Assembly: GCA_050749785.1 (NCBI GenBank)
Contig: JBOGSA010000007.1
Coordinates: 1 to 44,680 of the forward strand
Direction: 5' to 3'
DNA from: Candidatus Micrarchaeales archaeon
Lineage (GTDB): Archaea > Micrarchaeota > Micrarchaeia > Micrarchaeales > CABMGC01
Length of the DNA stretch: 44,680 bases
Position 1 is the stretch's first letter. Each line of letters starts with the position of its first letter. A program made the position numbers and the translations under genes. The notes under the pieces were generated by a model. The model saw only the letters and a list, made by a program, of their open reading frames with translations. It had not been told where the DNA came from and did not search any database. Shown piece after piece: positions 2-37,018 of the stretch.

Positions 2-2257
2 CAGATAGCAAGCAAGCTCAATGTGTCGCAGCGCACTGTGAGACGCGCTGCGCAGCTTCTTGAGGATGCTAAAAAGGCTGAGCTCTTGGATGGGAGGTCC
101 AGGACAGGCATCGCAGCAGCCGCGATATACATCGCATGCGTGATGGAGGGTGAGACTGTCACGCAACGAAACGTGTCAAATGCCTCGAAAATCAGCGAAG
201 TGACGATAAGGCACCACCAGCAGCTGTTTGTAAAAGGGCTCAAGCTAGTCATCCTAAAAGCTTCCGATTCAAAGCGACCTAGGCGCCGCACCGCACAAAG
301 GCATGGCAAATCGGATTCTACGTTCGCAGTCCAAAACCTAGATACGGCGTTGAAGACGATCAACGCCGCAGGAAAGAGCCCGACTCTTTTGGGCGCACTC
401 AAGAACAGCGTCCAGGATAGAAAGCTTATCAGGGGGCTGCATGCGGTCGAAGCGCTCGGCAAAAAACTTGGCCTTGATGAGAAATACATCAATCAGGCAC
501 ACGAACTATACCAAAGCGCATATTATGGCGGAACTTGGAATGGAAAGAGGGCCATGAGACTGACAATAGCGGCGATACAAGCGACCTGCACCCTGAACTA
601 TATCACAATTTCTGAAGAGGAATTTTTATCTAGAGCGGACCTAACAAAGGAAAATCTGCTTGCAGGTCTAAGAACGCTCAAAAGGCAAAAGCTGATCACG
701 CCAAAAGGCTACCTGCCGCGCGCAGTATCCGCGCTCAACCTTTCCAAAGAGACTGAGGCACGCGCATCAGAACTAATAGACAAGATCGAGGAGGCGAAAA
801 TCTGGAAAAGGGCAGATCCACTAAAAATCGCCGCAGTTGCAGCATATTTTGCTCTTGCCGAGATGGGAAAGAGGAGAACTAAAAGAGATGTCAGCACCAC
901 CATGAAAATAGGCCAGGCGAATTTCACCAGGGGGGCACGGAAAATAAACAAGCAGTTAAAGCTTAATTTAGATGCACACACAAAGATCGAAAAAATAATG
1001 GCCCTTGAATATCGTGCCACGGAAATCGCGAAGGTCCTCGAAAGATTGCCCGACATTAAAAATGCCCTAAACCTTCCCGATTCAATCCTTTCTAGATCAA
1101 AGGAGCTGCTAAACATGGCTGCGGAAAAGAACGTACTCGGTTTTATGCATAGCAAAACGGCGCTTGCATGCTGCATACGACTTGCATGCATTGAATCTAA
1201 GCAGCAAGTAGAATCCTTGAAAATATGCAAGGCGATTTCAGCCAATGAATCTAGTATATCAGCAGCCACATGGAAGATAGACAAAGGTCTAGGCCTAAAT
1301 CTAAGAACAGCAGGCAAGGTTTATTGTAAAGGTGATTTTACCGACCCAAAGGCACACGTGCTTAAAATTGGGGAGACATTGAACCTATCAAGTCATGTGA
1401 CATCACGTGCCGAAGAACTGCTTGTAAAGGTACAGGAAAAGAAAATTTTCCTCCGCCGGTCTTCGCGAGTTATCGCCTTAACGGTTTTATACTTCGCTGC
1501 CCAGGGGACTGAGCAGAAAATGACACAAAAATCTCTAGCTGACGCTGGAAAAATAAATCCATCTTCGCTGCATAGTGCATTAGCCGAACTCAGCGAGGCA
1601 TTTGGAATAGAGACAAGACACAAAGCAACTCAGGAGGAACGAGCCCAAAAAATAAGGGAGGCAAGCCAGAGGCAAAAAAAGAAGCTAAAGGATAGCAGAG
1701 TTAAGGAGCTTGGAAACTTTGCGTTAAAGCTAACCGACACCCTAAACTTAGATTCAACCTCCGCTGAAGAGGCAAAACGTATCTGGAGTATGGCAAAAGA
1801 CAAACAGGTGATTCAAGGCAGGGACGAAGCCGGGATCCTCTGCGCGGCGGTTTACGCAGCATGCAGGCTCAAAGACTCCTTCCACAGCCTTAGAGAGATC
1901 GTATCGAGGGCTAACGAACTCAATGGCAAATCATTTGATTACGGAGTAATAGCAGGGTACTACAATACGCTAATACAAGAACTTGAGATAAAGATGCCTC
2001 CCCCAGACATCGCAACAGGAGTTCTGCAGTTAGCGCAAAGGTGCGATGTATCAGAGTCGACAAAGAATATGGCCCTTAAAATATTGAAAAGAGTCGGAGA
2101 TGAAGTGGTTGGCGCAAACCCATACACCCTTTCCGGAGCAATACTTTATGGGGCTGCTCGCCTGAGCGGCAACCTAAAGACACAGGCGGAGATAGCAAGA
2201 GTAACCGGGGTAAGCGAAGTTTCTCTGCGCAACAACATTAAGAAATTGAATGTGTAA
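2..2257 (+). CDS. TFIIB/TFB-related protein built from at least 8 tandem cyclin-fold repeats; the 5' end lies outside the window
   Basis: The frame is open from nt 2: QIASKLNV precedes the track's GTG at 23. Repeated ~90-aa units each carry the TFB cyclin-box pattern: a helix (LNLS/LNLP/LNLD...), then GR/KR-x-x-x-(I/L)AAA-x-(I/L)Y-x-A, then a (T/S)-x-x-E/D-I/V helix. Examples are RSRTGIAAAAIYIACV, KRAMRLTIAAIQATC, ADPLKIAAVAAYFALA, SKTALACCIRLAC, SSRVIALTVLYFAAQ, DEAGILCAAVYAACR and NPYTLSGAILYGAARL...GVSEVSLRNNIKKL. Confidence 0.75.
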   Translation, partial: QIASKLNVSQRTVRRAAQLLEDAKKAELLDGRSRTGIAAAAIYIACVMEGETVTQRNVSNASKISEVTIRHHQQLFVKGLKLVILKASDSKRPRRRTAQRHGKSDSTFAVQNLDTALKTINAAGKSPTLLGALKNSVQDRKLIRGLHAVEALGKKLGLDEKYINQAHELYQSAYYGGTWNGKRAMRLTIAAIQATCTLNYITISEEEFLSRADLTKENLLAGLRTLKRQKLITPKGYLPRAVSALNLSKETEARASELIDKIEEAKIWKRADPLKIAAVAAYFALAEMGKRRTKRDVSTTMKIGQANFTRGARKINKQLKLNLDAHTKIEKIMALEYRATEIAKVLERLPDIKNALNLPDSILSRSKELLNMAAEKNVLGFMHSKTALACCIRLACIESKQQVESLKICKAISANESSISAATWKIDKGLGLNLRTAGKVYCKGDFTDPKAHVLKIGETLNLSSHVTSRAEELLVKVQEKKIFLRRSSRVIALTVLYFAAQGTEQKMTQKSLADAGKINPSSLHSALAELSEAFGIETRHKATQEERAQKIREASQRQKKKLKDSRVKELGNFALKLTDTLNLDSTSAEEAKRIWSMAKDKQVIQGRDEAGILCAAVYAACRLKDSFHSLREIVSRANELNGKSFDYGVIAGYYNTLIQELEIKMPPPDIATGVLQLAQRCDVSESTKNMALKILKRVGDEVVGANPYTLSGAILYGAARLSGNLKTQAEIARVTGVSEVSLRNNIKKLNV

Positions 2258-2271
2258 GTGAGTGTGATACC

Positions 2272-3234
2272 TTGGCTCAAATCTTAGAAAAAAGGGAAAA
2301 GAAGCATTCTGTAGATGATCACCTCAGGGATACCCAAGAGGCTGATCTCACAAAACTGTGCACCGACATTCATAGGGGAGAGAACTTCTGCCAAGAGTGC
2401 GGGTTTGTGTCTCCGATACCAATCTACGATACTAGGCCAGAGAGGACAAGAGAAAGTGAGATAGCCTATGGCCACAGGGATTACTATTTCGGAAAATCCT
2501 CATACATTCCAGCAACAAAAAGAGATTCTGGTGGACTGACAATATCGACATCTATTCAACAGAAATTTTACAACCTGCGCATCTGGGACAACAGGATAGA
2601 TAACGACTCTGATAGGGCACTAAACAAAGTATATTCTACCTTAATGAAATGCAGCGACAAACTAAGCATTACAGATCAAATGGTCAAGGAGGCATTCACT
2701 TTTTTCAGAAAACCGCAGATACGGGAGAAGGCCCGCGGAAGGGCAACAGATGGAATGGCGCTTGCCGCTCTCTACCAGATTTGCGAGAACCATAAGCTAG
2801 GCATTACGATGAGCGAGCTTTCTGATGTGATAGGACTAAGCACAAAAACGCTTTTCAGCTGTGTTCGTAGCATCAAGGAAGCGCTGCCATTGCCGAAGGA
2901 AGACGGGGCAGGCGGGGCGGTAGGCACATCAGTATCTGGAACGAAATTCATCTCCAAGATCGCATCCGTTGCAGGGATATCAGTAAAGAACTCGAGAATT
3001 GCATTTGAGCTGCTTGACAGATTGGAAAAGGAGACGACTTACACCCAAGGAAAGAATCCCAAAGCGCTCGCAGCCTCAATGATTTATTATGTTGAGATAA
3101 AGGACGCGCAGAGCGATATATCGCAAAAGGATATCGCAGATGCCGCATGCATAACAACTGTCACAATAAGAAACAGGGTATTGGAGCTTCAAGAAATAGT
3201 GGAGTCTCTGTCTAATTTTTCTTTTCCGGTTTGA
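2272..3234 (+). CDS. tfb: Transcription initiation factor B (TFB) paralog with a variant N-terminal zinc ribbon
   Basis: 320 aa. The N-terminus reads C-x3-H-x6-C-x2-C (LCTDIHRGENFCQECGFV). Two cyclin repeats follow (GRATDGMALAALYQIC..., KNPKALAASMIYYVE...ACITTVTIRNRVLEL). The track start is TTG. Confidence 0.8.
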   Translation: MAQILEKREKKHSVDDHLRDTQEADLTKLCTDIHRGENFCQECGFVSPIPIYDTRPERTRESEIAYGHRDYYFGKSSYIPATKRDSGGLTISTSIQQKFYNLRIWDNRIDNDSDRALNKVYSTLMKCSDKLSITDQMVKEAFTFFRKPQIREKARGRATDGMALAALYQICENHKLGITMSELSDVIGLSTKTLFSCVRSIKEALPLPKEDGAGGAVGTSVSGTKFISKIASVAGISVKNSRIAFELLDRLEKETTYTQGKNPKALAASMIYYVEIKDAQSDISQKDIADAACITTVTIRNRVLELQEIVESLSNFSFPV

Positions 3235-4657
3235 CCGTGGGAAAGAGGATTGTGTCCTTTATCGAAGGAGCATCGGCTATTAGCATCACGAGTCTGTCTA
3301 TCCCAAAACCCAATCCAGCAGTCGGGGGCATTCCATATTCTATTGCCTCAAGGAAATCTTGATCTGTAGGTGCAGCCTCAACATCGCCCCTCTTTCTCTC
3401 ACCCTCCTGGTCCTCGAACTTCTTCCTCTGTTCAACAGGATCAGTAAGTTCCGAGAAGCAGTTTGCAACCTCCTTGCCGTTTATGAAAAGTTCAAACCTC
3501 TCACTGAGCTTCGGGTTGCTACGCTTGTCCTTTGTCAGCGGGCACATGTATCCAGGGAAGTCGACCACAAATGTCGGGTCCTTTAGCCCTGGCTGCACAT
3601 ATTTGTCGAAAAGCGCATCAGCGACATGAATCGCATTTTTTATCGGAATATCAAGTTCCTCCTTCTTTGCAACCTTTATTGCACTTTCATCTGTCAGTGT
3701 GGAGATGTCTATTCCAGACTCTTTCTTTATCGCATCGACCAGATAGACCTTCTTGAATGGCGGCTTGAAATTTATCTTCGAACCCTGATATTCGATCTCA
3801 TGGCTTCCCTTTATTTTTTTCACGAGCCCGCCAAGCAACTCCTCTGTCATCTTCATGAATTCATTGTAATCGGCGTATGCCTGGTAGAATTCAAGCGCAG
3901 TGAATTCCGGGTTGTGGTTTGCGTCAACCGCCTCGTTCCTGAAATCCTTGGATATCTCGTACACCTTCTCCATCCCGCCGATTATCAACCTCTTCAGATA
4001 CAGCTCATCTGCAATCCTCAGATAGAACTCAGTTCCCAGATAGTTGTGGTGCGTAACGAAAGGTTTTGCGGCAGCTCCCCCGTAGACTGACTGCAGGATC
4101 GGCGTCTCAACTTCAAGATATCCACGCTCATCAAGAAACTTCCTTATGTAGCTTATAACGGCAGCACGCGTGGCGAAAGTCTTCCTTGATTCACCGTTCA
4201 TTATCAGATCAAGGTATCTTTTCCTGTATCTCGTCTCTATGTCCGTGAGTCCATGGAACTTCTCCGGCAAAAATCTGAGCGATTTCGCAAGCATCTCTAC
4301 AGAGCTGACCTCTACGCTTATCTCCCCGCGTTTGCTCTTTGAAACTTTTCCTTCGATCCCAACAATATCGCCTATGTCCGTGAGTTTCACAGTCTCAGAA
4401 GAGCTCTTGTCGAGATCCTCAGTTTTTATAATCAGCTGTATCTTTCCCGATCCGTCAAGAAGATCGGCGAAATAGAGCTTGCCCATCTCCCTCATTCCAG
4501 TCAGCCTGCCAGCAACGCTCACCGTCTTGCCCTCAAACTTCCCAAAATTCCCCTTTATCTCCTCAGCGTGGTGTGTCTGCTCGTAAGAATAAGGATAAGG
4601 GTCTATCTTCATTGACCGCAGCTTCTTTGCCTTCTCAAGCTTTACGGAATCGACCAA
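3212..4657 (-). CDS. lysS: Lysyl-tRNA synthetase, class II
   Basis: N-terminal OB-fold region, class II motif 2 (KDFRNEAVDANHNPEFTALEFY) and motif 3 (GLGFGIDRLVMLI). TTG start per the track. The 3' end overlaps the tfb paralog convergently. Confidence 0.9.
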   Translation of the reverse strand: MVDSVKLEKAKKLRSMKIDPYPYSYEQTHHAEEIKGNFGKFEGKTVSVAGRLTGMREMGKLYFADLLDGSGKIQLIIKTEDLDKSSSETVKLTDIGDIVGIEGKVSKSKRGEISVEVSSVEMLAKSLRFLPEKFHGLTDIETRYRKRYLDLIMNGESRKTFATRAAVISYIRKFLDERGYLEVETPILQSVYGGAAAKPFVTHHNYLGTEFYLRIADELYLKRLIIGGMEKVYEISKDFRNEAVDANHNPEFTALEFYQAYADYNEFMKMTEELLGGLVKKIKGSHEIEYQGSKINFKPPFKKVYLVDAIKKESGIDISTLTDESAIKVAKKEELDIPIKNAIHVADALFDKYVQPGLKDPTFVVDFPGYMCPLTKDKRSNPKLSERFELFINGKEVANCFSELTDPVEQRKKFEDQEGERKRGDVEAAPTDQDFLEAIEYGMPPTAGLGFGIDRLVMLIADAPSIKDTILFPTVKPEKKN

Positions 4658-11133: not shown

Positions 11134-12095
11134 ACAACGATCACCTTGTCTACTCTATACCTCTGCTCTATGCTGCATCTGTCCAGCGAAGAATCCTGTC
11201 CATGCCTCAGCATCCTTTCCCCTACAAACGCTATCATCGCGCCGTTATCTGCGTTGAACTCATCCGGTGCGTAGCCAAAGCTAATTTTATTCTCCTTTGC
11301 AACTTCACCAAGCATTTCCCTCAGTCTTTTACTCTGTGCAACCCCTCCGCATACGCACAGCTCCCTGCTCTTTGTAAGCATGAGTGCACGTTCCGTTGCT
11401 TCACAGAGCATTGAGAATGCAGTTTCCTGCAATGAAAAGCAGATGTCCTCAACTTTATTTTTTCCAACCATCTTTAACGCGCTTGTAAGAAGACCTGTGA
11501 AAGCAAAGTCCATCCCCTTGACCGTGTAAGGCAGCCTCACATATTTGCCATTTTGTGCAAGCTTTGCAACCGTGGATCCCCACGCGGGATTAAGCCCTGC
11601 CCCGCGTGCGAAATTGTCAATCATGTTGCCCACCCCAATATCAAATGTCTCTCCAATAATCCTGTAGGAATTCCCGTATCTTTTCAAAATCTGCGAATTG
11701 CCTCCACTCACATACAAAGCTAGTGGTTCCTTCATATTGGAAATCGATTTTGTAATCTCTACATGTGCGACTCCATGATTCACCTGTGCAATTCCCACAT
11801 CTAGCTTTTTTGCAATTGCCTTTGCGGTAAGCTCTCCAACCTGTAGACAGGGTCCTAGGCCCGGACCCCGAGTATAGCCAACTCCCTCAATATCACTTAT
11901 CTTAAGCCCGGTTTTCTTCAAGGCGAGGCTTACCACCTCTGTGGCATTTTTGGCGTGGAACTCTGCGACCTTTCCAGGAATGAGGCCTTTGTCAGTTATC
12001 TTGTACATCCTCTTCTCATTTGCGATTACCTCTCCATTGTCTACTATTCCTACTCCAAATGTGTGCGCACTACTTTCAATCCCAAGTACCAGCAT
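11130..12095 (-). CDS. kae1: tRNA N6-adenosine threonylcarbamoyltransferase Kae1 (KEOPS)
   Basis: GIESSAHTFGVGIV N-terminus and the VNHGVAHVEI metal-binding His pair. It is unfused from bud32 but translationally coupled to it. Confidence 0.9.
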   Translation of the reverse strand: MLVLGIESSAHTFGVGIVDNGEVIANEKRMYKITDKGLIPGKVAEFHAKNATEVVSLALKKTGLKISDIEGVGYTRGPGLGPCLQVGELTAKAIAKKLDVGIAQVNHGVAHVEITKSISNMKEPLALYVSGGNSQILKRYGNSYRIIGETFDIGVGNMIDNFARGAGLNPAWGSTVAKLAQNGKYVRLPYTVKGMDFAFTGLLTSALKMVGKNKVEDICFSLQETAFSMLCEATERALMLTKSRELCVCGGVAQSKRLREMLGEVAKENKISFGYAPDEFNADNGAMIAFVGERMLRHGQDSSLDRCSIEQRYRVDKVIVV

Positions 12096-12148
12096 CCGAC
12101 GAACCTCTCCTAAGGAGTATAAATAAACAAATTAATATCATTGAGTAT

Positions 12149-12355
12149 ATGGAGGAGGAAGAACCTAACAGCGAGATAATCCACTTGATAAGGCGTTCAC
12201 AGAATATCAATCCACAAGAGCGGATAAAGGCAGCAAAGGATCCGAAGCTACCTGAAGAATTCTTAAAGAAACTAAAGTTTGATCCAGATGAGACTGTCAG
12301 GGAAGTTGCCAAGCGCATAGTGGAAAAGAGGTTTCCCGATAAAACGAAGGCGTAG
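12149..12355 (+). CDS. Small HEAT-repeat-like protein (68 aa)
   Basis: The ATG at 12149 gives MEEEEPNSEI...DPDETVREVAKRIVEKRF, a PBS-lyase/HEAT-like D-x-D-x-x-VR-x-x-A pattern. The longer track ORF from 12020 overlaps kae1 antisense. The stop codon abuts the left target-site duplication of the island. Confidence 0.5.
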   Translation: MEEEEPNSEIIHLIRRSQNINPQERIKAAKDPKLPEEFLKKLKFDPDETVREVAKRIVEKRFPDKTKA

Positions 12356-12364
12356 CAACTCAAC
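12356..12364. repeat. Left copy of the target-site duplication CAACTCAAC
   Basis: Identical 9-mer at 18585-18593. It extends to 10 bp if the following G is counted. It directly abuts the left TIR. Confidence 0.75.
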
Positions 12365-12438
12365 GGCTTTGTGTAAATAGAGGTGTAATAAGGGCACTTT
12401 ATACACATTTTTAGGACTTCTTACACATAAATAAGGAC

Positions 12439-13257
12439 ATGGCAGTTAAGCAAATGTGGTCATTTCGAATAAGCGGAGATGATGAAACAAATGTTCATGG
12501 AAAACAATATCGTGTTCAGATAAGCCAATTTGCCAAAGACAGTGGTGTCAAAGGATCAGTTCAAAATATTAAATTTAAATCAGAGATAGAAGTAAAATTG
12601 GCATTAGAAGATAAAGCAAAGTCGCAGGAATTTAAAGATGAATTATCCAAAACTTTAGATAAGGAAAAGCTGGATAAATTGAAATTTTCCGAACTATATG
12701 AATTTCAGGAAGAAGAGGCAAGATATCCCGATTTTAGTGTAATTCGTGAAGATGAATTAACTGAAATGGTTTGGGCACTACAAGGTGCGGGAAAAGTATT
12801 TTTCGAATCTGCAAAAGCACAGAACTCCATGCTTAAAAGTATAGTTGAAATTATGGTTGCTCGTGATCATAAAAAAGAGCGTGGTCTTTTAGGAGCTTTA
12901 AATTTAGAAATAGGCTTCATAAATAAGAAATTAGATGATATGATTAAACAAATAGAAGAGAATAAAGAGGTCAATTTTAAATTTGAGGTCAATTTTAAAT
13001 TTGAACATCATTGCCTTCTGAAAGCACTGGTAGAACCAGCTTGGGCAGATGATGATACTTTTCTACAGCTCACTTCAGACTTATTTCATGGAATAAATAG
13101 AACAGATAAACCTCCATTTAATTCTCTCCCTAATAAAGAGGATAAACTGAAAGAACTACAAGCTCTTAAAAAAGTAGCTACAGAGTATTATAATATCATC
13201 AATAAACGAAGCGAGCAATTAGATAACCTGATAGATAATAATATAAAATCTAACTAA
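12439..13257 (+). CDS. Hypothetical protein (272 aa, charged and coiled-coil-rich) with an in-frame 18-bp tandem duplication
   Basis: First gene of the island, ATG start. The N-terminal ~65 aa loosely follow an acylphosphatase-like pattern (G..V.G..YR......A...GVKGSVQN...), which is weak evidence. EVNFKF is repeated twice. Confidence 0.55.
   Translation: MAVKQMWSFRISGDDETNVHGKQYRVQISQFAKDSGVKGSVQNIKFKSEIEVKLALEDKAKSQEFKDELSKTLDKEKLDKLKFSELYEFQEEEARYPDFSVIREDELTEMVWALQGAGKVFFESAKAQNSMLKSIVEIMVARDHKKERGLLGALNLEIGFINKKLDDMIKQIEENKEVNFKFEVNFKFEHHCLLKALVEPAWADDDTFLQLTSDLFHGINRTDKPPFNSLPNKEDKLKELQALKKVATEYYNIINKRSEQLDNLIDNNIKSN
12967..13002 (+). repeat. Perfect 18-bp tandem duplication (gaggtcaattttaaattt x2)
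   Basis: Units at 12967-12984 and 12985-13002 are identical and in frame (EVNFKF-EVNFKF). Confidence 0.95.
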
Positions 13258-13277
13258 TCATAATAATAGGTGTATGT

Positions 13278-13760
13278 GTGTCCATGTATGGCGAATTCGC
13301 CCAAAAATTCCAAATTATAGTTGGACACGCTATGGAGACAGGCACACTTGAAAAAAGGATAATAATCCAAAAAATTGCATATCTTTTATATAGAAAAGGT
13401 GTCAATTTCGAATATACTGATTTTTCATGGTATTTACACGGAATATTTTCATGGAATTTGTGGTACGATATTATACATTTTTGGGATCCAGCCCCCCAAC
13501 TACTTTCTACTGAACAAGTAGCCTCAGTGAATAATGTTTTGGAGGATTTTAAAAAGGCAAATTTAACTACTTATTTCACTACTTCAAATGATTTGGAATT
13601 GATAACTACTATTTTATATCGGGCAAAATCACAATCAGACTTAAATTCTGAAAATACAAGTCTAATTAATGAAGTAATTGCACTAAAAGGTAAATTTAGT
13701 CAAGAGCAAATTAAAATTGCAATTGATAAAATCAAATTAATTGAATGGAATTTTAATTAA
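13278..13760 (+). CDS. Hypothetical protein, possibly DUF4065/Panacea (SocA-like antitoxin) domain
   Basis: 160 aa, 20 nt downstream of the previous ORF. RIIIQKIAYLLYRKG...FSWYLHGIFSWNLWYDI resembles the KLxKLLY...GP(V/I) core of DUF4065 as I remember it. This is not verified. An alternative ATG lies at 13284. Confidence 0.4.
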   Translation: MSMYGEFAQKFQIIVGHAMETGTLEKRIIIQKIAYLLYRKGVNFEYTDFSWYLHGIFSWNLWYDIIHFWDPAPQLLSTEQVASVNNVLEDFKKANLTTYFTTSNDLELITTILYRAKSQSDLNSENTSLINEVIALKGKFSQEQIKIAIDKIKLIEWNFN

Positions 13761-13863
13761 TATTTTTACAATTATCTAAATAAGAGGAAGTGTGAAAAAT
13801 ACTCTCACTTTTTACACAAAAGTGTAATAATGGGTTTTTAAGGCTTCTTTTCGTATATTTTTC

Positions 13864-14544
13864 ATGCCAAACAGCAAAGAGAACTTCTTACAGCTACACA
13901 AAGTAATTTTATCCCTAAGAAGACAGATCATAAATGAAGTAACTTTGGCAATAGCTAAAAAAGTTAGTGGCGGCCAATTAGATGACTACCAAATAGTTTG
14001 GAATCAGCTTCAGATAATAGCGACCCCTGTAATAAAAAATGTTCTTAAAAGGAAATTCAAAGGAGCAATTTTCATCGAAGCCAAAAGTAAATCTACCTAT
14101 CCAGATTTAAGAATGGAATGGCAGGGATTTAAAGTAGCAATAGATATTAAATCAAATGAATCTTCTAAGGACCCTTGGTATGACATAGCAAGATTAGACA
14201 CTATAATAGAAACTCGCATTAATCAGTATGATGAAGAATACGAAGTAGTTATAAAATACGATAGCAAAACTAAAAAATTGATTAAAATCTTTTTTGATAC
14301 TCTTAGAGATACAGTGGGAATTAGGAAAGAATGTAATGGAGTTAAATATCGGCCCTATGATGGTAAATTAAGACCTAAAACCTGGAAAGAATTTGATGAA
14401 AATATTAATTATTGGAAGACGAAGGAAGAATTTTTGAAGGGTATTGAAAATTCTAAGAAACATAGATGGAAAGAGTCGGCTAAACAGCAATTAAAACATC
14501 TATCTAAAGAAGAAAAGAAAGAATTTCGTGACCTTTACACTTAA
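13864..14544 (+). CDS. Probable type II restriction endonuclease (PD-(D/E)xK)
   Basis: TYPDLRMEWQGFKVAIDIKS gives PD-x12-D-I-K. The gene is convergent with, and overlaps, the methyltransferase gene: the stop codons share one TTAA at 14541-14544. Confidence 0.55.
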   Translation: MPNSKENFLQLHKVILSLRRQIINEVTLAIAKKVSGGQLDDYQIVWNQLQIIATPVIKNVLKRKFKGAIFIEAKSKSTYPDLRMEWQGFKVAIDIKSNESSKDPWYDIARLDTIIETRINQYDEEYEVVIKYDSKTKKLIKIFFDTLRDTVGIRKECNGVKYRPYDGKLRPKTWKEFDENINYWKTKEEFLKGIENSKKHRWKESAKQQLKHLSKEEKKEFRDLYT

Positions 14545-15467
14545 GCTTTTTTTATTAAAGGTAATTTCATCGTTTTTGTTTTGTCTTTATTTATTCTTTG
14601 TTCTGTAGAGATGAGATGTGGTGCTACTGCATCATAATCTTTTTGTCTAATTGTAATTACCTTATTCAAATAAAGGGAAACATATTTACCCCCCAACATC
14701 GTCGGCTCAGAAGCTTCGACATTTTCTTTTGCTATTTTAACATATTTTTCATCTACATCAATTCCAATATATTTTCTACCCATTCTCTTTGCGGCTACTG
14801 CCGTGGTACCTGTGCCAACCATAGGATCAAAAATTATATCCCCTTCATCTGTTGTTGAAAGAATCATTCTTTCTACTAAATGTGGGGGTAATTGACATGG
14901 ATGGGCGTTCCGCCTAACCTTATGACGAATACGATGAATATCATTCCAAATATCACTTGCTACTTTACCGTAGGGATGAAGTAAATCTTTTTTGCCTCCC
15001 CAGTCTGCTAATAAATCTCCCTTTCTATCCCTTTGGTGTGGGACTCTAACTATAAAAGTTTTAGAATTAGATGTTTTTGTGTACCACAATATTCCGTAAT
15101 GTGCTGGTAAAAGTTTTGAATTTGTTGGGGATCCAAGAGCATCCCACGCTATCCAATGTCTAAATACCGCTAATGTATTGAGATGACATGCGTGATGTAT
15201 CAGCCATTTTGGAATATTTATTACAAATAATGATCCACTCGGTTTTAGTATTCTTATGCACTCAGAAAGCCATTCATTGCACCAAGCAATATATTCTTTT
15301 TCTGTTAACTCGTCTTTATAATTTGAATATTTTTTTCTTAAATTATAGGGAGGGTCAATAAAAACCATATCTACACAATTTTCGGACATTTTCCGCATAA
15401 GTGAGATACTATCCCCCAAAATAATTTGATTTTCCATTTTTTTAATATTAATCATATTAAACACCAA
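14541..15467 (-). CDS. DNA methyltransferase, beta-class N6-adenine/N4-cytosine (PF01555-like)
   Basis: Motif IV, FIDPPYNL, is near the N-terminus. Motif I, FDPMVGTGTTAVAAKRMGRKYIGIDVD, is near the C-terminus. That IV-then-I order marks the beta group. The track start is TTG at 15467; an ATG lies at 15455 (MINIKKMENQ). Confidence 0.85.
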   Translation of the reverse strand: MVFNMINIKKMENQIILGDSISLMRKMSENCVDMVFIDPPYNLRKKYSNYKDELTEKEYIAWCNEWLSECIRILKPSGSLFVINIPKWLIHHACHLNTLAVFRHWIAWDALGSPTNSKLLPAHYGILWYTKTSNSKTFIVRVPHQRDRKGDLLADWGGKKDLLHPYGKVASDIWNDIHRIRHKVRRNAHPCQLPPHLVERMILSTTDEGDIIFDPMVGTGTTAVAAKRMGRKYIGIDVDEKYVKIAKENVEASEPTMLGGKYVSLYLNKVITIRQKDYDAVAPHLISTEQRINKDKTKTMKLPLIKKA

Positions 15468-15606
15468 AAATTCGGTAAAAGCATACGCTAACTGATAATG
15501 TTTCCTTACCTATAACACCCAGAATCTGAAGGTAATTTGTATAGCGATGCCTAACCGCATTTCTTGTAGATGAATTGAGGAAGTTTAAATTTTTATAGGT
15601 TTCCAT
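15457..15606 (-). CDS. Small 49-aa ORF immediately upstream of the methyltransferase; possible controller, leader or spurious
   Basis: ATG 15606-15604 gives METYKNLNFLNSSTRNAVRHRYTNYLQILGVIGKETLSVSVCFYRIFGV, with stop 15459-15457. The stop lies 1 nt before the methyltransferase ATG at 15455. No motif recognised. Confidence 0.2.
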   Translation of the reverse strand: METYKNLNFLNSSTRNAVRHRYTNYLQILGVIGKETLSVSVCFYRIFGV

Positions 15607-15607
15607 C

Positions 15608-16819
15608 TTAATCCTCCTGTAAGAAGTTAGGTGTGATACCTAACTCATTTATCTCGTGAATAAGCACTACAATATTATGGCAAAGTATCTTTAATAGCAT
15701 CTCATTTATCTGTGCCGTTTTACTTCTACTCTTTAATCCGTCTCCAAACTTCATCTTAATCATGTGGAAAGTTGTTTCGATATTACTTCGATTATGATAG
15801 TGGTTCATGTAGTCGTCTCTGTTCATCATGAAATAATGATACATCTTTCTCCAGATTTTTCCATGTCTTGGAAGAGATGCAGAATTTGACTTGAAAGGAA
15901 TGAATGCTGTTCCTCCTATTTCATCAATATATTCCATATTCGGTCTTGCCAAGTATTCCTTGTCTGCACTCATCTGCTCTATATTGAAGCCCTTTTCATG
16001 AGTCTCTTTAGCTAATGGGATGAAGAAAGGCGAATCATTAGGGAACTCATCAGTTACTTGAACTGCGGTAATTATGTTTGTCTTAGTTCCACAGCAAGCG
16101 TGAACCTTGATCCATTTGTGTTGTTGGCCTGTTCTATGCTTGGTATAAAGATACTGCCCAAAGCTCGTGGTGTGGAAGCCTGTGCTGTCTATGGCAAACT
16201 TGGTTTCAACGCTTTTGAAAGGCATGGAAGAGAGACTTATGAGCTTATAAAGAATTGGTGTGATGTCCTCTCTTTGCATAAAATGGCCTGTAGAAGCAAA
16301 GCAAGGTGTTTTGACTACCAAACCCTTCTCTTTGGCTATCTTGAGGTCTGAAGCGAACCTACGCAGGCTGAATTGAGTATAGACCTTTAGGGCGGAAGCA
16401 AAGAGATTATCAGATTGCGGTATCTTAGGTCTGCCAAAGGTATAGGTTGGTTCATCTACTTCGCTAATTAAATCTTTTAGAAGATCCATGAACTTAGACT
16501 TCTCTTCAGTCTGGCTTTTGTTGTAAGCTGGCCAGTTTTGTGAGTAGGTTACTTTTTTGGTAATGGTTGTAGTACCATCGTCATTGATCTGTTTCGTAAT
16601 CGTTATCTCTACTGCGAAGATGTGCTTGCATTTTAGACCTCTTTCTTGGTAGTCGGGGCAATTGCATATAGACTTGTCAAGCCTAAGAGTAACTTCGTAA
16701 TGCTTATTAGTTGTCTGGGAGGGAACTAACCATGTGTTTCCATTCAGCTTAACCTTTCCAGCCTGTGCAATCTGGTTTCCCTTTTCTTTTCTTATTTGTA
16801 GTAGTTCTTGGATTTGCAT
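15608..16819 (-). CDS. DDE transposase (IS4/IS5-type) with an N-terminal SWIM zinc finger
   Basis: SWIM: CNCPDYQERGLKCKHIFAV. DDE candidates: FAIDSTGFH and MSADKEYLA. The C-terminal signature is Y-x2-R-x3-E-x6-K (YHNRSNIETTFHMIKMK). Confidence 0.85.
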   Translation of the reverse strand: MQIQELLQIRKEKGNQIAQAGKVKLNGNTWLVPSQTTNKHYEVTLRLDKSICNCPDYQERGLKCKHIFAVEITITKQINDDGTTTITKKVTYSQNWPAYNKSQTEEKSKFMDLLKDLISEVDEPTYTFGRPKIPQSDNLFASALKVYTQFSLRRFASDLKIAKEKGLVVKTPCFASTGHFMQREDITPILYKLISLSSMPFKSVETKFAIDSTGFHTTSFGQYLYTKHRTGQQHKWIKVHACCGTKTNIITAVQVTDEFPNDSPFFIPLAKETHEKGFNIEQMSADKEYLARPNMEYIDEIGGTAFIPFKSNSASLPRHGKIWRKMYHYFMMNRDDYMNHYHNRSNIETTFHMIKMKFGDGLKSRSKTAQINEMLLKILCHNIVVLIHEINELGITPNFLQED

Positions 16820-16835
16820 AATATCATTATTTGTT

Positions 16836-16933
16836 ATTAGGTATCTAATTCCTATAATAGTATTAGATATCTAAAGATATATATACTTTAGCTTTAGATA
16901 CCTAAAGCTTTATAAAGCAATAGATACCTAAAG
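16836..16933. promoter_or_regulatory. Array of four 12-bp (pseudo)palindromic sites TTAGATA(T/C)CTAA in the divergent intergenic region
   Basis: The copies are ttaggtatctaa at 16836-16847, ttagatatctaa at 16862-16873 (a perfect palindrome), ttagatacctaa at 16893-16904 (within gctttagatacctaaagc) and tagatacctaaagc at 16920-16933. Spacing is 26-31 bp. The array lies between the transposase ATG (16819) and the DUF488-fusion ATG (16940). Confidence 0.7.
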
Positions 16934-16939
16934 CAGATT

Positions 16940-17740
16940 ATGAAGCTTCAAAAAGTTCCGTCCAGAAAATTAAACCAAAAAGAATATGTTAAATGGTTAA
17001 TCATAGTGCCTCCAAAAGAAGTGGATCAGTTAGGATGGGAGGATGGGCAAAAATTAAAGAGTTTTGTAGAAAAAAATAATTTAGTTATAATAATAAGCAA
17101 AGAACCCTCTTATGATGAATTTAAAACAAAAATTGCACAATTATTGAACACTAAATCTCAAGGTTTTACTTGGAAAGAGATTAAGGAAAAATTAAAGCTT
17201 GAAATAAAAGTACCTAATAATAAATGGGTTAGGAAATTAGAAAACGAAATAAGTCTTAAAAGAATAAGCCATAATGGAGAAAAATATTGGTATATTGATA
17301 AAAAGGGAGTTACAGTTTATACATTAGGCTATGAGGGAATAGCTATTGATCAGTTTATTAACTACCTAAAGAAAAATGGTATCGAATGTTTAATTGATGT
17401 TAGAGAATTACCTTTAAGTCGTAAAAATGGTTTTTCTAAATCTGTATTAAATGAAGCTTTGGAAAAAAATGGTATTGTATATAGACATTATCCACAATTA
17501 GGCTCTCCAAGAGAATTAAGGCACAAATTATGGACTGAGGGCAATTATACCGAATTCTTTAAAGATTATGAAAAATGGCTTTCTTCACCATCAGCTACAA
17601 CTTATATTGGAGATGTTGAAGGGCAAGCTCATATTCGAACTACTGCAATAATGTGTTTTGAAAAAGACGTCGAAAAATGTCATAGAAGTGTAATAAAGAA
17701 ACGCTTAATCCATGATGGGTTCAAGGTAATAGACCTATGA
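16940..17740 (+). CDS. AbrB/SpoVT-like plus winged-helix plus DUF488 fusion protein
   Basis: The N-terminus, WLIIVPPKEVDQLGWEDGQKLKSFVEKNNLVIIISKE, looks like an AbrB-type swapped hairpin. The middle, GFTWKEIKEKL...NKWVRKLENE...GEKYWYI, looks wHTH-like. The C-terminal DUF488 signature is YTLGYEG...IECLIDVRELPLSRKNGFSK...NGIVYRHYPQLGSP...CFEKDVEKCHRSVI. Confidence 0.7.
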   Translation: MKLQKVPSRKLNQKEYVKWLIIVPPKEVDQLGWEDGQKLKSFVEKNNLVIIISKEPSYDEFKTKIAQLLNTKSQGFTWKEIKEKLKLEIKVPNNKWVRKLENEISLKRISHNGEKYWYIDKKGVTVYTLGYEGIAIDQFINYLKKNGIECLIDVRELPLSRKNGFSKSVLNEALEKNGIVYRHYPQLGSPRELRHKLWTEGNYTEFFKDYEKWLSSPSATTYIGDVEGQAHIRTTAIMCFEKDVEKCHRSVIKKRLIHDGFKVIDL

Positions 17741-18519
17741 CTTTTGAGAGGAAGCGAATTCTAATTGTGGTAAAAACTTACCCTAATCTGAGTAGAAAAT
17801 ATGTTGAGACTGTATGTGTGGGCGGTTTAACAGATAATGGAAAATGGATTAGAATTTTCCCAATAAGATTTAGGCAATTACCTTTTAATAAAAGATTTAG
17901 TAAATTTGATATTATTGAAGCCGAAGTAGAACCTACACATGATAAGTTTGGAAGGATAGAAAACCATACAATTAAAGATACAACGATAGAAATCTTAGGT
18001 AAATTACCTGCTACCCCCGAGAATTGGGAACGCCGTAAAAAATTGGTTCTTAGTCATTTAGATAAATCGCTGGAAGAATTAGAATTGAAAAAAGAATCCG
18101 ATCATGTGACTATGGGTATAATAAAGCCACGGGAAATTATAGATTTTTATCGTAAAAATATTGAAGAATTTAGAGAATGGGAAGCGGAATTAATACAGGG
18201 AAATCAGAAAACATTAATTGAAAAAATAACAGGTAAAAAATACGAGAGTCCTTTAGAGAAAATTCCTTACTGGATGGGTTACCACTTTTATTGTCAGGAT
18301 GAAAGATGTAATGGGCATAATATGATGTGCGAAGACTGGGAGATGTTAGAACTCTTTAGAAATATGCGAAAAAGGGAAGGTAGTGACGAAAAGGCTTTCG
18401 AAAAAGTAAAGCAGAGCTATTTTACATGGATGAAAGAAAGAGATATTTATTTTGTTGTAGGTACTGAAAGTAAATGGAATAATTTCCTGATAATTGGTAT
18501 ATTTTATCCGCCTAAATGA
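17737..18519 (+). CDS. Uncharacterised protein with a C-x4-C-x2-H-x3-C cluster, translationally coupled to the DUF488 gene
   Basis: 260 aa, with a 4-nt ATGA overlap with the preceding gene. The conserved-looking N-terminus is KRILIVVKTYPNLSRKYVETVCVGGLTDNGKWIRIFPIRFR. The Cys/His cluster is YHFYCQDERCNGHNMMCEDWE. Confidence 0.6.
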   Translation: MTFERKRILIVVKTYPNLSRKYVETVCVGGLTDNGKWIRIFPIRFRQLPFNKRFSKFDIIEAEVEPTHDKFGRIENHTIKDTTIEILGKLPATPENWERRKKLVLSHLDKSLEELELKKESDHVTMGIIKPREIIDFYRKNIEEFREWEAELIQGNQKTLIEKITGKKYESPLEKIPYWMGYHFYCQDERCNGHNMMCEDWEMLELFRNMRKREGSDEKAFEKVKQSYFTWMKERDIYFVVGTESKWNNFLIIGIFYPPK

Positions 18520-18593: not shown

Positions 18594-18671
18594 GTTAGCT
18601 TTAAATAGATTAAGAAGCATAATCATCTCTATAAAAGTCAGGCATCCTAGGCCTCTTTTTTGTTGATTTTC

Positions 18672-19244
18672 ATGAAGGTTAATTTTATTGAGAATACCCC
18701 CTCCGTTGTCAGGTTCAAGATGACGGGAGTGAGCAACAACTTCGTCAACTCCGTCAGGAGAGTTGCGAGCAACAGCGTGAAGTGCTTTGCGGTTGACAAT
18801 GTCACATTCTACGAGAACACCACATCAATGTTCGACGAGTATATATCCCACAGGATAGGGCTTGTGCCGATAATAACCCCTGATGGCTACGACGAGAAGG
18901 ACGAGATAATGTTCCATCTTGAGGCTGAGGGACCAAAGACGATATTATCAAAGGACATGGAACCGACCGACAAGAAGGTCAAGGTGGCAAACGAGAATAT
19001 ACCGCTCATGAAGCTCGCCGAAGGGCAGAGGCTCAAGGTCGACTGCAAGGCGATATTAGGCAACGGGATGAAGAGCTCGAAGTTCCAGCCAGGATTCATA
19101 ACCTTTACTGCAAACGAGGAGAACAGCGAGTTCGAGTTTTACATTGAGACATTCGGTCAGATGAACGCAAAGGAAATATTAAATAGGGCACTTGAGATAA
19201 TAGATGACGGACTTAAAGCTACGCACAAGGAACTCAAGAAATAG
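18672..19244 (+). CDS. rpoD: DNA-directed RNA polymerase subunit D (Rpo3), short form
   Basis: MKVNFIENTPSVVRFKMTGVSNNFVNSVRRV...DEYISHRIGLVPI. Its position ahead of L18e-L13-S9-rpoN matches the conserved archaeal cluster. The track TTG start is at 18660. Confidence 0.8.
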   Translation: MKVNFIENTPSVVRFKMTGVSNNFVNSVRRVASNSVKCFAVDNVTFYENTTSMFDEYISHRIGLVPIITPDGYDEKDEIMFHLEAEGPKTILSKDMEPTDKKVKVANENIPLMKLAEGQRLKVDCKAILGNGMKSSKFQPGFITFTANEENSEFEFYIETFGQMNAKEILNRALEIIDDGLKATHKELKK

Positions 19245-19250
19245 CCGTGT

Positions 19251-19337
19251 GCGGGGGTGGCAGAGTCTGGTCAAATGCGCTAGCTCGAGGGGTTAGTAGC
19301 TTTAGTGCTTGCTAGGGTTCAAATCCCTACCCCCGCA
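19251..19337 (+). tRNA. tRNA-Leu (anticodon GAG), type II with a long variable arm
   Basis: Hand fold: acceptor GCGGGGG/CCCCCGC, D stem GCA/TGC, anticodon stem CTAGC/GTTAG with loop TCGAGGG, variable arm AGC-tttagt-GCT, T arm TAGGG-TTCAAAT-CCCTA, discriminator A. Position 33 reads C in this fold, which is unusual. Confidence 0.8.
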
Positions 19338-19349
19338 TAAAGTGATGAT

Positions 19350-19697
19350 ATGAACAGGATAATTGAGAAGGACGCGATAAACGCCTGGGTAGAGGCAATT
19401 TCCACTGTCAAGTCCGACTCGAAGAACGCTGGCCTTTGGAAGCAGGTGAACAGAATGGTGCGTTTGCCAAAGAGGGCAAGAGTATCAGTAAATCTCTACA
19501 AGCTAAACAAGCTCGCAAAGGACGGGGAGTTCGTGGTCGTTCCAGGTAAGGTGCTGAGCTTTGGAAACATTGACAGGAAGATAAAGATTGCAGCGGTTGA
19601 ATACTCGCAAAGCGCACTCCACAAGCTCAAGGAAAGCGGCTGCGAGATGATGACGATTGAACAGATGATAAAGAGCAGTCCAAGAATAATAACATGA
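19350..19697 (+). CDS. rpl18e: 50S ribosomal protein L18e
   Basis: 115 aa. Assigned from its position between rpoD/tRNA-Leu and L13, plus the typical N-terminus (...LPKRARVSVNLYKLNKLAKDGEFVVVPGKVL). Confidence 0.85.
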   Translation: MNRIIEKDAINAWVEAISTVKSDSKNAGLWKQVNRMVRLPKRARVSVNLYKLNKLAKDGEFVVVPGKVLSFGNIDRKIKIAAVEYSQSALHKLKESGCEMMTIEQMIKSSPRIIT

Positions 19698-19701
19698 TTA
19701 C

Positions 19702-20139
19702 ATGGCAAGCGAGATCAAGGTCGTAGACGGGAAGAACAAGGTGCTGGGCAGACTAGCGAGCCAAGTCGCAAAGATGGTCCTAAACGGCCACGAGGTAGCG
19801 GTGGTAAACGCAGAGCACATCTTCATCAGTGGCCATTCAAAGGACATAATCGCAGGCTACAAGCAAAAGCTCGAGTTCCAAGACAAGGCAAATCCTGAGC
19901 ACTCACCATACCATTCAAGAAGGGCGGACCTTTTCGTCAAGAGGGCGATAAGGGGAATGCTTCCTTTCAAAAAGCCAAAGGGCAAGGCGGCATACAAGCT
20001 GCTCAAGATATACATCGGCGTGCCAGAAGAGTACAAGACGGCGAAAATGGTTGAGATAAAGACAAGCTCGCAGCACCAGATATTCGAGAGCACAATGTAT
20101 GTCAAGGACCTTGTACAGAAGCTCGGTTACAATAAGTGA
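19702..20139 (+). CDS. rpl13p: 50S ribosomal protein L13
   Basis: VVDGKNKVLGRLASQVAKMVLNGHEVAVVNAE is typical of uL13. Confidence 0.9.
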   Translation: MASEIKVVDGKNKVLGRLASQVAKMVLNGHEVAVVNAEHIFISGHSKDIIAGYKQKLEFQDKANPEHSPYHSRRADLFVKRAIRGMLPFKKPKGKAAYKLLKIYIGVPEEYKTAKMVEIKTSSQHQIFESTMYVKDLVQKLGYNK

Positions 20140-20144
20140 TATTC

Positions 20145-20678
20145 ATGGCAGAACAAAATGCAAAGGCAGACGCGCTTGAGAATCTCAACAAGGAGATAAG
20201 CGCAGTTGTGCAGGTAAAGGAGGAGAAGAAAGTCGTTGTGGTCAAGCAAAGGAAGAGAACAGCGCCGAAACAGAAGATGGTCCTTGTCAAGGCAAGGAGA
20301 AAGATGGCAATCGCAAGGGCGAGGCTAACAAAGGGCGCAGGAAGAGTTACAATCAACAACATAGGCATAGGCCTATTCAAGCCAAAGGAAGTCAGAGAGC
20401 TGATACTTGAGCCGATAAACTTCTCGCCGCTCACAAGAGAAATCGCTAACAATTCAGACATAAAGATCAATGTGTACGGGGGCGGGCTTTCAGGCCAGGC
20501 ACAAGCATGCAGGACAGCGATCGCAAAGGCGATGGTTGCAGCGTCCCCATCCGATGCAATAAAGAGCGCTTACATGAAATACGACAGGACCCTATTGGTC
20601 GACGATGTCAGGCAGGTCGAGCCGAAGAAGTTCCTCGGAACAAAGGCAAGGGCAAGGTTCCAGAAGTCGTACAGATGA
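20145..20678 (+). CDS. rps9p: 30S ribosomal protein S9 with a ~45-aa N-terminal extension
   Basis: The core is KARRKMAIARARLTKGAGRVTINN...GGGLSGQAQACRTAIAKAM...DVRQVEPKKFLGTKARARFQKSYR. ATG at 20145; the track GTG at 20136 overlaps the L13 stop. Confidence 0.9.
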   Translation: MAEQNAKADALENLNKEISAVVQVKEEKKVVVVKQRKRTAPKQKMVLVKARRKMAIARARLTKGAGRVTINNIGIGLFKPKEVRELILEPINFSPLTREIANNSDIKINVYGGGLSGQAQACRTAIAKAMVAASPSDAIKSAYMKYDRTLLVDDVRQVEPKKFLGTKARARFQKSYR

Positions 20679-20693
20679 GATGAAGATGATACC

Positions 20694-20894
20694 ATGATGA
20701 TACCGATAAGATGTTTCTCGTGCGGACAGGTAATCGCAGACAAGTGGGAAGAGTATGACAGAAGGGTCAACAAGAACCACGAGGATTCTGGAAAGGTCCT
20801 AGAAGACATGAAGATCAAGAGATACTGCTGCAGGAGAATGCTCATATCGAACGTCGATTTGATTGATGACGTGATAAGCTACGGAAGAAAGTAA
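20694..20894 (+). CDS. rpoN: DNA-directed RNA polymerase subunit N (Rpo10)
   Basis: [21 protein letters not shown]...RYCCRRML, the zinc-binding CxxC...CC signature. Confidence 0.9.
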
Positions 20895-20930
20895 TGGAAT
20901 TAATAATATGATTATGTAAAATGATATGCT

Positions 20931-21017
20931 GGGGTCGTCTGCTAGCTTGGTTAGGCTCTGTGCTTAGGGAGCATAAGACCCGAGTTCAAAAGGAAACTGA
21001 AAATCTCGGCGACCCCA
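20931..21017 (+). tRNA. tRNA, Pro-like (anticodon reads AGG in my fold), with a 13-nt insertion in the T-loop
   Basis: Acceptor GGGGTCG/CGACCCC, anticodon stem TGTGC/GCATA with loop TTAGGGA, T stem CCGAG/CTCGG enclosing 20 nt (ttcaaaaggaaactgaaaat) instead of 7, discriminator A. The D stem is weak (TGCT/GGCT). Its position between rpoN and S2 is where I recall a tRNA-Pro in other archaea. Confidence 0.65.
20989..21001 (+). other. Putative non-canonical tRNA intron in the T-loop (aaaggaaactgaa)
   Basis: Removing these 13 nt restores TTCAAAT, the T-loop seen in the intron-less tRNAs of this window. TTCA (20985-20988) pairs with TGAA (20998-21001), leaving a 3-nt bulge AAT. The exact boundaries are ambiguous within the A runs. 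Confidence 0.5.
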
Positions 21018-21033
21018 CATTTATGGTGCAAAC

Positions 21034-21660
21034 ATGACAGATGAAAACAATGATAATTTGCTGATGGACAGGACGGAATACCTAGAGGTAGGAGTAAACA
21101 TAGGCACCAAGACAAAGTCTCCGGGGATGAAGCAGTTCGTCTACAGGACTAGGGAGGATGGACTATACCTGCTCAACCTCGATACGATAAACGAGAGGAT
21201 AATAACCGCATCAAAGATGCTCGCAAGGTACGAGCCAAAGGACATAGTCGTAACCGCCTCAAGGATCTACGCGATATCAGCAGCGTCGAAGTTCGCAGAG
21301 ATAATCGGAGCAAAGTTCATGCCTGGAAGAGTCATGCCGGGAATATTCACAAACTCAAACAGGGCAGATTACACAGAACCTGGAATAATACTGATGAGCG
21401 ACACGAGGAACGAGAGGCAAGCGATTAGGGAGGCAAGCAAGACAAGCATACCTGTGATCGCGCTATCAGACACAGACAACTGGATAAAGTTCGTCGATCT
21501 GATTATACCTTCGAACAACAAGGGAAGAAGGTCCCTAGCGCTAGTCTACTTCCTGCTCGCAAGGGAGTACATGAAAGAGAAAGGCTTAATAAAAGCAAAC
21601 GAAGAGTTCAACTACAAGATCTCAGACTTCGAAGCGAAGGTCGAGATGAAGGCGAAGTAA
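21034..21660 (+). CDS. rps2p: 30S ribosomal protein S2
   Basis: YLEVGVNIGTKTKSPGMKQFVYRTREDGLYLLNL...PVIALSDTDN is typical of archaeal uS2. Confidence 0.9.
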   Translation: MTDENNDNLLMDRTEYLEVGVNIGTKTKSPGMKQFVYRTREDGLYLLNLDTINERIITASKMLARYEPKDIVVTASRIYAISAASKFAEIIGAKFMPGRVMPGIFTNSNRADYTEPGIILMSDTRNERQAIREASKTSIPVIALSDTDNWIKFVDLIIPSNNKGRRSLALVYFLLAREYMKEKGLIKANEEFNYKISDFEAKVEMKAK

Positions 21661-37013: not shown

Positions 37014-37018
37014 GAATA

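Follow-up and report, generated by a model that had tools for sequence, protein, structure and literature searches.

The stretch of DNA analyzed here (the window) is a whole contig of 44,680 nucleotides from a Candidatus Micrarchaeales archaeon (JBOGSA010000007.1 of assembly GCA_050749785.1), and it begins inside the gene for a giant relative of the transcription factor TFB. Ordinary TFB and TFIIB are composed of one ribbon, one linker and exactly two cyclin repeats, and they are among the most invariant transcription proteins of archaea and eukaryotes. The giant breaks this rule of two repeats and ∼300 residues: it is ∼973 residues in size and has eight repeats, seven of which are located in the window. 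In the ordinary proteins the zinc (Zn) ribbon recruits RNA polymerase, and the helix-turn-helix (HTH) of the second repeat reads the B recognition element (BRE) (PMC13502027).

Positions 2–2257 of the forward strand are occupied by one open reading frame (ORF), which is open to the 5′ edge and runs for 751 codons before a TAA stop; at this base composition, the chance of 751 codons without a stop is ∼1e-18. The initial annotation, made from the letters of the window, had described an ORF that is open to the edge and longer than 750 residues, and the codon count agrees with it. The gene and its immediate surroundings contain the following features.

2..2257, + strand: giant TFB gene, 3′ 77%; 751 codons and a TAA stop (full gene ∼973 codons)
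2..241, + strand: unit 2, repeat-2 type, second cyclin repeat of the N-terminal TFB module; BRE-reading helix SEVTIRHH kept; Pfam 70.9 bits
242..442, + strand: linker 1, rich in Lys and Arg, containing RPRRRTAQRHGK; net charge +11; no Pfam match
252..1172, + strand: 921-bp in-frame segment with linker 1, units 3–4 and half of unit 5; missing from another assembly, L001 (junction 8901/8902)
443..688, + strand: unit 3, repeat-1 type, diverged; G-x-W-N-x-K replaces RGR; orthologous across the giants
710..958, + strand: unit 4, repeat-2 type; BRE-reading signature lost
1046..1291, + strand: unit 5, the most diverged repeat; Pfam 21.6 bits, own hidden Markov model (HMM) 42 bits
1355..1600, + strand: unit 6, repeat-2 type; BRE-reading signature lost
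1601..1723, + strand: linker before the C-terminal core, rich in Lys and Arg, containing QRQKKKLKDSR; net charge +6; modelled as a long helix
1724..1984, + strand: unit 7, first repeat of the conserved C-terminal core; GR loop kept; family-specific insertion with invariant GYY
2021..2254, + strand: unit 8, second repeat of the conserved C-terminal core; BRE-reading helix SEVSLRNN kept; Pfam 34.3 bits
2258..2271, + strand: spacer of 14 nt between the giant gene and the paralog
2272..3234, + strand: TFB paralog, 320 aa, two repeats; first CxxC knuckle of the Zn ribbon lost

With the downstream TFB paralog as the anchor, we located two other assemblies of the locus. L001 (NCBI GCA_975254265.1) is 99.975% identical to the window over the shared parts and reaches further upstream; L002 matches it with 100% identity, beginning at window position 1173. 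The missing first 222 codons of the giant gene were found at L001 7986–8651, and they add one C4 Zn ribbon, the B-reader/linker region and one cyclin repeat. Whether a Zn ribbon lies upstream of the window had been raised by the initial annotation, and the L001 extension answers it. The reconstructed giant is 973 residues in length and, according to our own single-repeat HMM, contains eight units. In identity and architecture, we regard it with very high confidence as a complete TFB to which three additional cores of two repeats each are appended, encoded by a single gene of ∼973 codons in Candidatus Micrarchaeota (DPANN), whose members are minute archaea living as symbionts.

Repeat units and predicted folds

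The Zn ribbon of the giant (CPNC...CKKC), which is outside the window, scores 41 bits on Pfam Zn_Ribbon_TF (PF08271; cutoff 29). On PF00382, the Pfam TFIIB repeat, unit 1 and unit 2 score 50.3 and 70.9 bits, and they are of repeat-1 and repeat-2 type, respectively. The window protein as a whole matches PF00382 with an E-value of 5e-68 over seven stretches. Taken singly, all eight units match the profile with 21.6–70.9 bits (cutoff 23.6), only unit 5 being just under the cutoff. The NCBIfam TFB model (PRK00423) matches the window protein over four core-length stretches; the score of 253 bits is under the curated cutoff of 384 bits, for a window fragment that is without its N-terminus. Cyclin_N (13 bits), Cyclin_C (17.1 bits) and RB_B (12.1 bits) are all under their cutoffs. 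The PDB sequence matches of the window protein are the Pyrococcus woesei TFB core, human TFIIB and Brf1; unit 2 aligns to residues 115–196 of P. woesei TFB.

Against one full-length TFB profile of 308 positions, built from 111 ordinary TFBs, residues 5–303 of the giant cover profile positions 4–305 with 287 bits, and the three cores that follow this complete TFB score 77.5, 62.6 and 129 bits. The B-linker motif DRLRVWD aligns in this comparison and the B-reader segment is divergent; the end of the linker at 1601..1723 aligns to the last part of the B-linker region (profile positions 96–115). Along the protein, the unit types alternate as 1,2,1,2,1,2,1,2. The Lys/Arg-rich linkers that had been noted between blocks are both present, and nearly all units as well as both long linkers are net basic.

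AlphaFold2 modelled every unit as one five-helix bundle, with a predicted local distance difference test score (pLDDT) of ∼75–90, and the basic linkers as either disordered or helical; linker 1 is predicted to be disordered, with pLDDT <50 at residues 85–137. The top Foldseek matches are 1d3u_B and 1ais_B, both the P. woesei TFB core, followed by TFIIB, Brf1 and Brf2. The best pair of units in the whole-window model superimposes on the DNA/TBP-bound P. woesei TFB core with a template modelling (TM) score of 0.79 at 2.7 Å. The middle units also match the P. woesei core first, with looser pair geometry (TM 0.51–0.57, 5.4–6.4 Å), and cyclins appear among the structural matches only weakly, with low TM scores.

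The profile split, the alternating unit types and the five-helix folds with their PDB matches bear out the proposal that the protein is a TFB-related giant of about four TFB cores joined head to tail, and both profiles and models give TFIIB folds for the internal units. Two further statements of the initial annotation need amendment. It had counted at least seven complete units plus the tail of an eighth; the multi-repeat nature stands, but the window holds seven units, six of them complete. The first unit in the window is short of only a few N-terminal residues, and the remaining eighth unit (unit 1) lies, like the Zn ribbon, upstream of the window edge, in the part supplied by L001. The last unit had been called the most canonical; this is wrong for single units, as unit 2 scores 70.9 bits and unit 8 34.3 bits, but right for the pair, which scores 129 bits compared to 62–77 bits for the other extra cores.

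Integrity, relatives and selection

In three assemblies the giant gene is broken or differs: the window contig opens partway through it, the first position of the L002 contig is window position 1173, and L001 is without 252–1172, a segment that is supported by the window assembly alone. Contigs L005 and L006 of one relative also break within the gene. These points favor an assembly or sequencing artefact, in which the long ORF would have come from repeat expansion, overlooked stops or the chimeric joining of ordinary TFB genes. However, no direct DNA repeat of ≥12 nt is present within the gene, where the repeat scan gave only short chance pairs, and the units share only 10–32% protein identity; repeat collapse or expansion is therefore not an issue, and DNA-level repeats were ruled out as a cause of mis-assembly. 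Codon usage is coherent along the whole gene, including 252–1172. One intact orthologue of 1019 residues (P0004) is present on a contig of 336,861 bp, every unit is under purifying selection (see below), and in no assembly of the locus is the ORF split into ordinary TFB genes. An artefact is thus an explanation to which we give almost no credence.

The absence of 252–1172 from L001 is due either to a deletion allele at the level of strains or to an artefactual join in the L001 assembly; no microhomology was found at the deletion junction. The window version is the intact one, because it is collinear with a distant orthologue, completes unit 5 and has matching codon usage, whereas the L001 version is left with a half-unit. 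As a separate observation, an in-frame deletion allele of 307 residues (window 252–1172) may exist at the population level. In addition, three of the five assemblies of the gene family break within the gene despite its freedom from DNA repeats, which hints at structural heterogeneity among strains.

The relatives of the giant are 26–31% identical to it and have the same collinear layout and the same neighbours. The window protein aligns collinearly with P0002 (1020 aa), which is 84% identical to P0004 (1019 aa); both have nine repeats. In the P0004 contig the neighbours are S11-S4-S13, the giant, a 315-aa TFB, lysyl-tRNA synthetase (LysRS) and pyruvate kinase. In the metagenome-assembled genome GCA_028866975.1, there is an in-frame overlap of 7 nt between two contigs, and a split repeat becomes complete when they are joined; the joined ORF encodes 1430 residues with at least 13 repeats and has the same flanking neighbours. 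A further relative, P0006, is complete, with 594 residues and four repeats. The intact CPxC...CxKC ribbon is present in all giants. Between giants the terminal modules are best conserved (59–85 bits), and the middle units vary in number. Comparison of P0002 and P0004 gave a ratio of non-synonymous to synonymous substitution rates (dN/dS) of 0.05–0.35 per unit and 0.16 overall, and of 0.03–0.22 for the linkers; the whole length of the giant gene is under purifying selection.

When 1.84 billion representative proteins were searched exhaustively with a profile, 5075 TFB-family matches were obtained, among which the only members of the giant family are the window protein, P0004, P0005 with P0007, and P0006. 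The family is hence very rare, with about four lineages, which have four, eight, nine and at least 13 repeats; those that are named belong to Candidatus Micrarchaeota, and the MCM protein of the window is 84–87% identical to proteins with this name. Among the best-scoring 152 of the 5075 proteins, 136 have two repeats, eight have three and three have four. Other searches gave less. One search of genome contigs with the window protein found only one ordinary two-repeat TFB of Bathyarchaeia. In the JGI metagenomes, the conserved C-terminal core hit 71 loci, all of them ordinary two-repeat TFBs, and peptide patterns were not specific for the family. One word-indexed search with the giants' profile found the giants P0001 and P0002 only, and it missed P0005–P0007 of the exhaustive search.

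The two halves of the 13-repeat relative are labelled 'hypothetical protein, partial [Candidatus Micrarchaeota archaeon]' at NCBI, and the family members carry only hypothetical names. With such public labels, and with assemblies that tend to break within the gene, the family is easy to miss. We found no paper on any TFB with more than two cyclin repeats, only gene-family expansions and truncated paralogs, and the accessions of the assemblies and runs gave no match in the literature; as far as literature and database names go, the initial remark that no equivalent had been described is correct. The giant TFB, whose function is predicted, is a real and conserved architecture that is very rare in a family otherwise well known, and it would surprise specialists in the field. 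Having 8–13 repeats with one ribbon, conserved and selected, it shows that the TFB core can multiply inside a single polypeptide. The giant further suggests that, in some DPANN archaea with reduced genomes, the basal machinery has been elaborated and not just simplified.

TFBs with three and four repeats were also observed, at L080 181–1797, L081 226–1842 and L082 4052–5899; they include P0065 (538 aa) and P0130 (615 aa), as well as P0003 and P0015. P0065 was assembled identically in ENA, JGI and Logan data. Like the giant, P0003, P0015, P0065 and P0130 have the Zn ribbon and the canonical core with extra C-terminal TFIIB repeats, in their case one or two; unlike the giant, they have only three or four repeats and unrelated genomic contexts. 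These different contexts make other lineages and an independent origin probable. TFBs with extra repeats thus seem to arise recurrently, and they appear to be undescribed.

DNA-reading motifs and possible functions

Across the 111 ordinary TFBs, the GR loop of repeat 1 and the (T)EV(T)IRN helix of repeat 2 rank with the best-conserved columns. The three large giants retain these motifs essentially in their first and last cores alone; the exceptions are GR at unit 5 and a partly kept helix at unit 9 of the 13-repeat protein. In the window protein, the (S/T)EV(T/S)(I/L)R signature is found in units 2 and 8 and is lost in units 4 and 6. The initial annotation had suggested that the protein could bind several TBP/BRE sites, act as a decoy or serve as a scaffold, and the loss of the DNA-reading signatures from all but the first and last cores narrows these ideas.

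The motifs in the terminal cores, the better conservation of the terminal modules and the basic nature of units and linkers lead us to propose that the giant may be a multivalent TFB with one polymerase-recruiting head and a second DNA-binding core. The N-terminal module would function as an ordinary TFB, binding TBP and BRE-TATA and recruiting RNA polymerase via the only Zn ribbon. The C-terminal core, which alone among the extra cores appears to keep both DNA-reading signatures, would provide a second TBP-DNA or BRE site without a polymerase-recruiting head. The diverged middle repeats would form a basic spacer or scaffold whose length varies. Together these parts would make up a multivalent initiation factor that has higher avidity, carries a tethered TBP supply or bridges two promoter sites. 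As a specific mechanism this proposal is tentative, and we put it somewhat below an even chance; for architecture and mechanism taken together, our confidence is evenly balanced. Several observations weigh against it. In P0002, the C-terminal core has GN in place of GR. Not every family member has a second DNA-reading core, as the four-repeat P0006 is without the conserved C-terminal core. In two relatives, one stand-alone TFB of 344–370 residues adjoins the giant, which may then be a specialised rather than a general factor. Moreover, with predicted TM scores (pTM) of 0.31 and 0.46, the models do not fix the relative arrangement of the domains.

The middle repeats bear on a second explanation. 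In cyclins and the Rb pocket, the cyclin fold serves to bind proteins, and the extension (repeats 3–8) could likewise be a protein–protein scaffold that docks regulators, TFE, chromatin proteins or host/partner factors onto a TFB at the promoter, with no binding of DNA or TBP by the extension. The middle units have lost their DNA-reading signatures yet stay under purifying selection, their pair geometry departs from that of the DNA-bound TFB core, and repeat number is plastic, all of which would suit a scaffold. However, the DNA-reading motifs of TFB and a near-canonical pair geometry are retained in the C-terminal core, the basic charge of almost all units and linkers suits nucleic-acid binding, and the Cyclin_N and Cyclin_C profiles stay under threshold. 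A pure scaffold is a minority possibility that we consider unlikely.

Three of the four cores are without the N-terminal domain that recruits RNA polymerase, and such ribbonless cores could act as a decoy or negative regulator, soaking up TBP or blocking BRE/TATA and thereby damping or gating initiation. In all giants, however, these cores are covalently tied to one complete TFB with intact ribbon and B-linker, which is hard to square with a pure inhibitor, and DNA-reading motifs are present in only one extra core; this role is rather doubtful. Several products of TFB-core size could also be released, through internal initiation or through proteolysis of the linkers. The disordered basic linkers could be cleaved, and the layout resembles fused tandem genes at a locus where TFB genes do stand in tandem. 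Set against this are the lack of any conserved internal Met at the core starts, the purifying selection on the linkers, and the single unbroken frame over 973–1430 codons in lineages that are only 26–31% identical, and we judge a polyprotein highly improbable.

One extended form of the multivalent proposal is that a single head is tethered to up to a dozen TFB-core modules, which might engage more TBP-promoter complexes or coat promoter-proximal DNA. We consider it speculative and more probably wrong than right by a wide measure. If true, a reduced DPANN genome would encode a basal initiation factor that also acts as an organiser, bridging promoters or working in a chromatin-like way, and its valency would be tuned by fast gain and loss of repeats, from four to at least 13 between lineages, possibly with the 307-aa deletion allele in one population. 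The giants may in any case offer a natural system for studying a TFB core that is uncoupled from polymerase recruitment and could serve a second promoter, the holding of TBP or a scaffold.

Compared to the canonical archaeal TFB (Pyrococcus; PDB 1AIS and 1D3U), the N-terminal 305 residues of the giant are alike from end to end, with C4 ribbon, B-linker region, two repeats and the BRE-reading HTH. However, the giant has ∼670 more residues, six added TFIIB repeats (three cores) and the divergent B-reader. Brf1 (TFIIIB70) and Brf2, both among the sequence and structure matches, resemble the giant in having one TFIIB-like N-terminal half and one long C-terminal extension, which in Brf1 anchors TBP and Bdp1. 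The matches cover only the cyclin region of Brf1 (chain residues 94–260), however, and the extension of the giant is composed of PF00382 repeats, not of Brf homology blocks as in Brf1; common descent of the extensions is unsupported.

Lineage-specific multiplication of TFB modules is thought to diversify promoter usage (PMC3261711, PMC6101594, bioRxiv 10.64898/2026.09.06.749720). Like the giant locus, which has one or two separate TFB paralogs, Halobacterium (TfbA-G) and Sulfolobus (TFB2/TFB3) have multiplied TFB modules; there, however, the copies are separate genes with at most two cyclin repeats, whereas in the giant they are fused and one Zn ribbon is left. The sigma-TFB model posits one hypothetical primordial factor with four cyclin-like repeat (CLR)/HTH units, formed by duplication of a two-repeat unit, with odd and even types in alternation (Burton and Burton 2014, PMC4581349). 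The giants have the same kind of duplication and alternation in living archaea and are thus a living example of what the model postulates. They are one derived expansion in a narrow lineage, not relics, and they say nothing direct on sigma factors.

The TFB cluster and other features of the window

The locus is a TFB gene cluster, in which the giant is followed by one or two TFBs of ordinary size. As the initial annotation had stated, a TFB paralog of 320 residues lies 14 nt downstream of the stop codon of the giant; because this spacer is short, co-transcription of the two genes is suggested. In every relative, too, a comparable gene comes next after the giant. The paralogs just after the giants (window; L004 3506–4453) have lost the first CxxC knuckle, and only CQEC or CITC is left. 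The L004/L079 paralog pair has a dN/dS of 0.09, indicating strong purifying selection. Pairwise identity among the downstream paralogs is only 25–32%, and for one pair no alignment was obtained, so one-to-one orthology among them is not established. The N-terminal module of the giants is 35–45% identical to the adjoining stand-alone TFBs of 344–370 residues. The layout of the giant could have come from core duplication inside the gene or from fusion of neighbouring TFB genes; the cluster with its degenerate-ribbon paralog and the identity to stand-alone TFBs fit a putative course of tandem duplication and fusion.

LysRS is encoded just downstream of the TFB cluster. It is of class II (PF00152) in the window (3212–4657, − strand) and in L079, and of class I (PF01921) in the same slot of GCA_028866975.1 (L006 3436–4992, − strand); this class switch looks like in-place non-orthologous displacement. 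The archaeal operon S13-S4-S11-RpoD-L18e-L13-S9 is split and partly inverted, with the TFB cluster between its halves. S13, S4 and S11 are divergent, upstream of the giant (L001 6040–7652, − strand), and RpoD (18660–19244), tRNA-Leu, L18e, L13, S9 and S2 are ∼18 kb off on the other strand (window 18660–21660, + strand).

At about 12000–18500, the window contains one low-GC island, with 33% GC compared to about 45–47% elsewhere, which is probably a mobile or defence insertion. Its genes are as follows.

14541–15467, − strand: N6/N4 DNA methylase
15608–16819, − strand: DDE transposase with SWIM finger
16940–17740: DUF488 protein
17737–18519: DuOB-like protein, weak match

One scan for promoters and terminators gave counts at or below shuffle expectation; it is of the sigma-70/intrinsic-terminator type and is uninformative for an archaeon. 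The 190-aa ORF at 27493–28065 (+ strand) matches only the C-terminal half (166–344 of 344) of 3-dehydroquinate synthase II and may be a truncated or split gene. The 861-aa protein with tetratricopeptide repeats (TPR) and an AAA ATPase domain (34437–37022, − strand) is interrupted by one intein with a LAGLIDADG homing-endonuclease domain; inteins are also present in two MCM homologues of related organisms (P0262 and P0324, each 1050 aa). The 99-nt tRNA at 39632–39730 (+ strand) scores 40.6 bits with Rfam and was not reported by ARAGORN; it probably contains an intron, and the gene for the RtcB tRNA-splicing ligase (37995–39434, − strand) adjoins it. The window also encodes one DnaK-DnaJ chaperone pair (28070–30630, − strand; Hsp70 745.7 bits), and archaeal DnaK-DnaJ genes are generally regarded as bacterial acquisitions.

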